Sequence record: PQ014731.1
DNA: 64,000 bases
Reading direction: 5' to 3' (one strand)
DNA from: Escherichia phage VB-EcoM-WM
Below are positions 18,354 to 19,115 of this stretch, one piece after another. The position numbers were made by a program, and so were the translations under genes. The notes beneath the pieces were generated by a model. It saw nothing but the letters and a program-made list of their open reading frames with translations. It did no database searches and had not been told where the DNA came from. Each line of letters begins with the position of its first letter. Position 1 is the stretch's first letter.

Positions 18354-19115
18354 CATTATGTTCAAGGTGGTTCGCAAGGCCACCCCCGCACCTTTACGTG
18401 CTGCTGCATGTCCCCATGCAGATCAGACTATATCTTCACACTTAGTGTGTCTACCATTTCGAGTGTCATCAGCTTACACCCTACACCGCTACATTCATCA
18501 CGGTTAGTCGTTAGGCATTTCGTAACAGAACTCGTAATCATAGTTATTAGGTGCACCACGTTTCAGGATAGCAGATATTCTTTTTCTATCTATTCCTAAA
18601 ACATCAGCACAACATCTCAGACTCTTAAAGTGAATAACCACACCAGTTAATTTGTGGGTGGCTTTCACCCCGTGACATCTTGTGTAAAAAGCATAACAGT
18701 TGTTGTCGTATCCTTCTTGAGTATTGTCTGGGCAAGCTCCCCACTCAAGGTTGTATACGCTGTTATCTTTCCTGTTGTCACCTTTGTGCTTAACATATGG
18801 TAAATTGTCTGGATTTGGTAAAAACGCTTCAGCAACAAGTCTGTGAACCCTTAGGCAAACAGTCTTTTTGTTCTTGCGTATCCTGACAAGACGGTAACCT
18901 GTGTTTATCTCTTCCCACGAATGAATAATTCTTTCATTTTCGTATCGGGTGCAATAAACATTGCCCATCTCGTCAATTTCATAACCTTCAAAATCACGAA
19001 TTTGTTTTCTCATTTCAGGACTCCTCTTAGTCAGGAGTTCTGTTACGTTTAGCACGGGATTGTCCGTTCTGGAGTTTCCCCGTTTAGATAGATTTTACAT
19101 GAGCAGTTATAGTTT
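18354..19115 (-). mobile_element. group I intron in nrdD carrying an HNH homing endonuclease ORF
   Basis: Exon 1 ends in U (..ATGGGT), intron begins AAA; minus-strand AACGACTA at 18505-18513 and GATATAGTC at 18427-18435; 3' core near-identical to the terminase intron. Confidence 0.7.
18504..19013 (-). CDS. HNH homing endonuclease (intron-encoded)
   Basis: NUMOD4-like N-terminus (GYEIDEMGNVY) and HNH-like core; start set at MRKQIRD after AGGAG RBS. Confidence 0.6.
   Translation of the reverse strand: MRKQIRDFEGYEIDEMGNVYCTRYENERIIHSWEEINTGYRLVRIRKNKKTVCLRVHRLVAEAFLPNPDNLPYVKHKGDNRKDNSVYNLEWGACPDNTQEGYDNNCYAFYTRCHGVKATHKLTGVVIHFKSLRCCADVLGIDRKRISAILKRGAPNNYDYEFCYEMPND

Follow-up and report, generated by a model that had tools for sequence, protein, structure and literature searches.

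The DNA studied here, a window of 64,000 nt of Escherichia phage VB-EcoM-WM (PQ014731.1), comes from a Vequintavirus (rV5-like) myovirus of Escherichia coli, and its nrdD region matches 298 phage records, nearly all of them from rV5-like coliphages. The ribonucleotide reductase gene nrdD lies on the minus strand in a nucleotide-metabolism block that reads nrdA, nrdB, glutaredoxin, nrdD, a T5orf172/DUF723 gene and then nrdG. An insert of 762 nt splits nrdD between codons Gly387 and Cys388 (Table 1). Exon 1 ends in ACA AGC ATG GGT (T S M G) at 19116 and exon 2 begins with TGT AGA AGT TTC (C R S F) at 18353; the exon 1 frame, if read on, meets a stop two codons into the insert (GKL*). The Pfam NRDD profile continues seamlessly from position 263 in exon 1 to position 264 in exon 2. 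Comparison with an intron-less nrdD, that of phage naam, gave the same boundary: with the insert excised the window gene is 2139 nt long, as is the naam gene, the two are colinear, and the BLAST alignment between them breaks precisely at 19116. Cys388, the first codon of exon 2, aligned with Cys290 of T4 NrdD, which we take to be the catalytic thiyl-radical cysteine, and the surrounding segment MGCRSFLS is common to both proteins. A first-pass annotation had placed the insert at 18354-19115, which proved exact to the base. It had also joined ..VTSMG to CRSFLS.. to recreate MGCRSFL, which lies within the segment now seen to be shared with T4, and had taken the MALRTTLNIM start of the downstream open reading frame for intron read-through, as indeed it is, the GTG at 18383 lying 30 nt inside the intron. 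The insert was also considered as an intein, an in-frame insert translated with the host protein; this reading was rejected, the exon 1 frame stopping after two codons and the HNH gene within the insert having its own start and ribosome-binding site. The two nrdD open reading frames should accordingly be annotated as join(20276..19116, 18353..17376) on the minus strand; this correction, with those of the HNH gene and the terminase gene given below, is the chief value of the finding. Promoter and terminator sites predicted between 17300 and 20700 were no more numerous than in shuffled sequence, so no promoter inside the intron is claimed.

Table 1. Position, strand and supporting evidence of the features described in the text, in window coordinates
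Feature	Position	Strand	Description and evidence
nrdD exon 1	19116..20276	-	387 codons; ATP-cone and N-terminal half of NrdD, ending ...TSMG; Pfam ATP-cone and NRDD 1-263; colinear with naam nrdD nt 1-1161
Predicted group I (IA2-type) intron	18354..19115	-	762 nt; follows exon U19116 (U•G in P1); last base G18354
nrdD exon 2	17376..18353	-	325 codons and stop; starts CRSFLS, includes the glycyl-radical domain; Pfam NRDD 264-562 and Gly_radical
P1	19098..19122	-	Exon CAUGGGU 19122-19116 with guide GCUCAUG 19104-19098; read from sequence; paired in 7 of 7 related introns
P10		-	Potential pairing, P1-loop CUAUA 19112-19108 with exon 2 UGUAG 18353-18349; read from sequence
5' core	19035..19092	-	P3 5' strand 19092-19087; P4 19083-19078/19059-19054; P5 19073-19071/19065-19063; P6 5' strand 19053-19052; P6a 5' strand 19047-19035
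3' core	18354..18533	-	P6a' 18533-18521, P6', J6/7, P7 18509-18505/18430-18426, P7.1, P7.2, P3' 18455-18450, P8, P9 18421-18404, P9.1, P9.2 18384-18380/18370-18366, terminal G 18354
Predicted HNH homing endonuclease gene, P6a loop	18504..19013	-	169 aa and stop; PDB 1U3E and PHROG 59 matches; orthologues annotated at 510 nt
Predicted Shine-Dalgarno-sequestering hairpin	19020..19038	-	ACUCCU/AGGAGU (Shine-Dalgarno sequence GAGGAG); overlaps P6a 5' strand; fold energy -12.4 kcal/mol, z = -2.7
ORF-less group I intron, large terminase gene	46935..47200	+	266 nt; Rfam RF00028 92.7 bits; spliced peptide uninterrupted in intron-less relatives

The T5orf172/DUF723 gene of the block, a 310-aa open reading frame between nrdG and nrdD (16333-17265, minus strand), has DUF723, CapR, treble-clef zinc-finger and T5orf172 domains and looks like a free-standing homing-endonuclease-like gene. 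It is found in naam and JEP1 and is missing from SYGMH1, where nrdG directly follows nrdD.

The ends of the insert are those of a group I intron: at the 5' splice site U19116 forms a U•G pair in P1, and the last intron base is G18354. Between them the helices of the core could be read as P3 UCUAUC/GGUAGA, P4 ACGGGG/UCCCGU, a short P5, P6 GC/GC and P7 GACUA/UAGUC, with a P6a of 13 bp (CGUAACAGAACUC/GAGUUCUGUUACG) and no P2. The potential P10 of the window intron has a compensating counterpart, UGCC/GGCA, in the intron of Vibrio phage F89. Against the Rfam group I model (RF00028, Intron_gpI) the window copy scored 32.9 bits (E = 2.3e-6), with the 3' core aligned at high posterior probability; the score is under the gathering score of 50 bits because an ORF of about 500 nt in L6a breaks the local alignment, leaving the 5' half misaligned. 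In a scan of the whole window at the gathering threshold the terminase intron described below was detected and the nrdD intron was not. A relaxed scan forced the 5' half of the nrdD intron into the ORF, and the 5' core was placed by hand and by comparison with the orthologue of phage AMO3598. This orthologue is an ORF-less intron of 290 nt at the identical site, 89% identical in the core, and it scored 70.4 bits against RF00028.

Covariation was examined in seven nrdD introns from which P6a and the ORFs had been trimmed, those of the window, AMO3598, nepoznato, 19-1-2, Vibrio phage F89, T4 and Mosigvirus G2285. With the manual P1-P9.2 structure, 97.6% of the pair cells held standard pairs, compared with 32-46% when the partners were slid by 1-3 columns, a measure that is favoured by the structure having been taken from the window sequence. 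The count of compensatory pairs is independent of that: both sides had changed in 25 of the 60 pairs, including a U-A to C-G swap in P7. Covariation was also seen in P3, which with P7 makes up the pseudoknot of the core, and in P4 and P5, and P7.1 and P7.2 had four compensatory pairs each. In a shuffle control on the same alignment, none of 500 shuffles reached any observed measure. Its P7.1 and P7.2, together with its kinship to the T4 introns, place the nrdD intron in subgroup IA2, to which the td, nrdB and nrdD introns of T4 belong. We regard it as very probable that nrdD is interrupted here by a mobile, IA2-type phage group I intron, its self-splicing judged from the structure and its mobility from homology.

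The loop of P6a carries the gene for a predicted HNH homing endonuclease. Translation likely starts at ATG 19013, which has GAGGAG 6 nt upstream, and the GTG at 19055 given in the list of open reading frames is probably not the start in use; the resulting length of 169 aa is also that annotated in JEP1, SYGMH1 and nepoznato, and the gene should be annotated from ATG 19013. The protein matched I-HmuI (PDB 1U3E) over its full length (residues 3-166 against 4-172, E = 6e-8) and PHROG 59 with E = 4.5e-32. The Pfam HNH_3 match was 20.1 bits, below the cut-off of 24.8, and an I-HmuI_NUMOD-like match was also below cut-off. His76, Asn88 and Asn97 are conserved with I-HmuI. The residue aligned with Asp74 of I-HmuI, presumably a metal ligand there, is Lys in the window protein and Cys in the Vibrio F89 orthologue. 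By its relatives the protein is a plausible endonuclease, and its activity is not assured, because the Asp74 position holds Lys or Cys and the HNH_3 score is below cut-off. A tblastn search of the window with the protein gave no second copy. The first-pass annotation had proposed both that a group I intron interrupts nrdD and that it carries an HNH homing endonuclease gene; the U•G splice site, the terminal G, the P1-P10 structure, the covariation and the score of the ORF-less orthologue uphold the former, and the I-HmuI and PHROG 59 matches uphold the latter as a prediction.

The gene is interlaced with the ribozyme at both ends. Its last 14 codons or so (...YDYEFCYEMPND) and its stop overlap P6a', P6', J6/7 and P7, and its Shine-Dalgarno sequence is predicted to be sequestered in a hairpin (Table 1). 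The Phapecoctavirus orthologue would form an equivalent ribosome-binding-site hairpin from a different sequence (z = -3.1). The folding suggests that translation of the HNH gene would be held down in the folded precursor by this hairpin. The ribosome-binding site of I-TevI of T4 has a similar arrangement.

At least 80% of the intron was present in 28 phage records, and the HMD-6 copy is 100% identical to that of the window. The junction was uninterrupted in 97 rV5-like records; over 100 nt, their identity to the spliced junction of the window is 76-90%. Introns with and without the ORF occur at one and the same nrdD site. The one intron-less allele compared in full, that of naam, is 95% identical to the window nrdD over the whole gene, with identity falling to 77% in the 30 nt just ahead of the site and to 57% in the 30 nt that follow it. 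The changes in the exon flanks are mostly synonymous, and the divergence is confined to about -27 to +36 nt. Exon 2 starts with TGTAGAAGTTTCTT in all the intron-bearing alleles of E. coli phages and with TGCCGGAGTTTTCTT in the intron-less naam; the intron-bearing coliphages fall into four genera, and the first 14 nt of exon 2 are common to all four. Presence and absence at one site, the ORF-less copies and the linked flank haplotype, read together, point to homing. The ORF-less copies in AMO3598, cardinal and 19-1-2 fit the usual cycle of endonuclease loss. The divergence of the exon flanks may have another source besides co-conversion, namely selection that favours P10 pairing or a site immune to cleavage. 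Presence or absence of the intron and of its ORF should make a useful recombination marker among rV5-like phages.

Well beyond the intron flanks, at about 17900-18000 on the minus strand (in exon 2, between +189 and +279 nt of the junction), identity to naam drops a second time, to 77-83% compared with about 95% gene-wide, perhaps through a further recombination event. Escherichia phage V18 (KY683736, around 340-360) has no intron, yet of its two flanks the one in exon 2 is of the intron-linked type and the one in exon 1 of the intron-less type. Precisely where the intron would be inserted, V18 has ATGGGATATGTAG in place of ATGGGT|TGTAG, which shifts the frame by a net +2 nt in a region that is unannotated. 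Imprecise loss of the intron, a scar left by repair or an error in sequencing might each account for it. About 18-25 records of the MG0656xx series ("Campylobacter phage A142, A141, A147, C11 ...", with C. jejuni as host) match the window phage at 95-97% identity in nrdD and the terminase gene, and their host labels look doubtful.

The large terminase gene of the window also contains a group I intron, and here the first-pass annotation needed correction. It had set the intron at 46936-47222. The peptide produced by splicing out 46935-47200 (...SFSFIGATIFDNPVCLRDNPEYL...; ...SFSFIGATIFDNPVCLRDNPEYLAFLEG...) is 100% identical to, and uninterrupted in, many intron-less rV5-like terminase genes, and U46934 forms the U•G pair of P1; the intron is therefore assigned to 46935-47200, and the gene is 46192-46934 joined to 47201-48005 and should be so annotated. 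A 3' boundary at 47222 also leaves the product in frame (...GATI|RDNPEYL), but intron-less relatives read GATIFDNPVCLRDNPEYL, and that boundary would delete FDNPVCL. Sibling phages such as phiWec196 (980-1960) have an intron at the same terminase site that carries a different HNH gene, of 231 aa, so the window copy is an ORF-less form. The statement of the first-pass annotation that only one of the two copies has a homing endonuclease gene is correct for the window genome. A second intron lies about 106 codons upstream in phiWec196, in agreement with the report that the rV5 terminase gene is in three segments (Kropinski et al. 2013, PMC3606486); rV5 and phiWec196 have two terminase introns, and the window gene has the one ORF-less intron with the upstream intron absent. 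A possible third intron in the window at 27131-27140 (GATATGGTCT) was dropped, a relaxed Rfam scan giving no match there. Upstream of the terminase region are a cluster of five tRNA genes (43931-44651, plus strand; Rfam tRNA scores of 30-77 bits) and, about 1.1 kb upstream of the large terminase gene, a free-standing HNH gene (PF01844; 44701-45042, plus strand). The 113-aa product of the latter is like phage-packaging-associated HNH proteins and is unrelated to the HNH_3-type enzyme of the nrdD intron.

The first-pass annotation had called the 3' region of the nrdD intron near-identical to the terminase core and had concluded that one intron lineage spread recently to two sites, with only one copy carrying an endonuclease gene, which on this view it kept or gained. 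Similarity there certainly is: the 3' 136 nt of the two introns align at 78% identity (blastn E = 3e-27), the figure is about 86% over P7'-P9.2 and over the 58-mer that was quoted as evidence (nrdD intron positions 679-736), and with the terminase boundary corrected the two introns end at homologous positions. Yet only these 136 nt align. The 5' halves (P1-P6) are about 47% identical and essentially unalignable, P2 is present in the terminase intron only, and the P4-P6 sequences also differ. A MAFFT alignment of the full introns scattered the terminase 5' half over the ORF, and its 5' part was set aside as meaningless. Moreover, the 3'-half identity of the nrdD intron to the terminase intron, 74%, equals that to the nrdD introns of T4 (71%), G2285 (75%) and Vibrio F89 (73%), and these match the window in the 5' half too, at 71-79%. 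Unrelated phages of Pseudomonas, Acinetobacter, Xanthomonas and Vibrio have introns that match the 3' end about as well, and the terminase intron of the siblings, as noted, has a different HNH gene. A recent duplication within the window genome is not supported by these comparisons, and that the two introns are recent copies of one lineage seems to us quite improbable; judged by sequence, they are members of the same broad IA2 family, with the T4-type nrdD introns closer to the nrdD intron overall.

Two further alternatives concern what the nrdD insert does. It might be a splicing-dead remnant, an endonuclease cassette that splits nrdD so that NrdD is assembled from two separately translated polypeptides. 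For such an arrangement there is precedent in other split reductases, namely the Aeh1 NrdA split by mobE (cited in PMC7344957 and PMC3653736). The stop two codons into the insert would end a first polypeptide, and a separate C-terminal fragment could be made from a GTG that lies 30 nt ahead of exon 2 and is preceded by AAGGTG, a weak Shine-Dalgarno-like sequence. All the core helices, however, are intact and covary across genera, the U•G pair, terminal G and P10 are all there, and ORF-less copies that score above the Rfam threshold are kept at the same site. The split, moreover, adjoins the presumed catalytic Cys, where a break in the chain is expected to be poorly tolerated. Loss of splicing is thus very improbable indeed. 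More room has to be left for an intron that splices and is immobile, its HNH protein being inactive or serving only as a maturase or DNA-binding protein, since the Asp74 position is Lys or Cys, the HNH_3 score is below cut-off, and the annotation in one record is that of a DNA-binding protein with a winged helix-turn-helix. Against this, the ORF is intact and conserved in length, its E. coli phage and Vibrio phage versions being 52% identical and both keeping the His and the two Asn residues, and the intron occurs in four genera of coliphages and in a Vibrio phage, with linked flanks in every case. An immobile intron is unlikely, though by no means negligibly so; the spread with linked flanks suggests that homing is ongoing or recent.

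For the preferred reading, a mobile self-splicing intron, a course of events can be proposed. The precursor RNA, to judge from the structure, would fold into the P1-P10 ribozyme. Free guanosine would attack after exon U19116, held as U•G by the guide GCUCAUG; the freed exon 1 would then attack after the terminal G18354, with exon 2 aligned by P10. Joining of ...TSMG to CRSFL... would give a full-length NrdD of 712 aa. In a mixed infection with an intron-less relative, the HNH endonuclease would, by homology, introduce a nick or a cut close to the insertion site in the intron-less nrdD, and repair by recombination from the intron-bearing allele would copy the intron and some tens of bases of exon flank. 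Translation of the endonuclease would be restrained, if the predicted folds are right, by the locking of its ribosome-binding site in the hairpin and by the location of the 3' end of its ORF within the ribozyme core. The element would add to the known cases of homing introns inserted at a catalytic codon.

As a type, a group I intron that encodes an HNH homing endonuclease and interrupts a ribonucleotide reductase gene of a phage is textbook material, and this particular element is already present in public genomes (about 28) and partly annotated. A literature search found no paper describing this nrdD intron; it did find the rV5 terminase introns (PMC3606486) and surveys of split ribonucleotide reductases (PMC3653736). 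Introns at the same site (MG|CRS) are in the nrdD genes of the Vequintavirus phages HMD-6, JEP1 and SYGMH1, Phapecoctavirus nepoznato, Justusliebigvirus cardinal, Avunavirus 19-1-2 and Vibrio phage F89. They are between 85% (nepoznato) and 100% (HMD-6) identical to the window copy, with 72% in the core for Vibrio F89, and the HNH gene, if present, is in the same loop; it is labelled "HNH homing endonuclease, Phage intron" in the JEP1 record. The introns of AMO3598, cardinal and 19-1-2 have no ORF and are 252-290 nt long. The nrdD of JEP1 has an additional intron at Gly287|Gln288 (sense strand from about 2361 onward), with a 534-nt ORF and an apparent P1 of exon AACGGU with GGCCGUU; its position, 10 codons downstream of that of the T4 intron, brings the intron sites in NrdD to three.

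The rV5 terminase introns (PMC3606486) come from the same phage group, are likewise group I introns with or without HNH genes, and are 74-78% identical to the nrdD intron in the 3' domain (P7.2-P9.2), but they lie in another gene at another site and have a different 5' half, with P2. I-HmuI (PDB 1U3E), from the DNA polymerase intron of Bacillus phage SPO1, is likewise encoded by a phage group I intron, and shares with the window protein the N-terminal beta region, the HNH motif and the C-terminal NUMOD-like helix-turn-helix; the two differ in host gene and in target and are only about 29% identical over 100 aligned I-HmuI residues (4-103).

The closest known element is the T4 nrdD (sunY) intron, which is in the same gene, lacks P2, has P7.1 and P7.2, and has the identical guide GCUCAUG. 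Core identity to the window intron across both halves is 72% for T4 and 76% for Mosigvirus G2285, and blastn gave 80% over 118 nt. The T4 intron lies about 110 codons upstream of the window site, within a Tyr codon that matches residue 277 here, and its 5' exon end, ...UAUGAGU, resembles the ...CAUGGGU that precedes Gly387|Cys388 in the window. The endonucleases differ: that of T4, I-TevII, is annotated as GIY-YIG in the T4 record and is encoded downstream of P9, whereas that of the window is I-HmuI-like and is encoded in the P6a loop. It is possible, though we would put it somewhat short of probable, that the window and T4 ribozymes are one lineage that moved to a new site by guide pairing (reverse splicing) and then captured an endonuclease gene independently, which drove homing. 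Such a history, if true, would be a natural case of a group I intron relocating by guide-sequence pairing. The kinship to the T4 nrdD intron, with another site and another endonuclease family, is in itself a small addition to what is known of how ribozyme, insertion site and endonuclease gene evolve separately.
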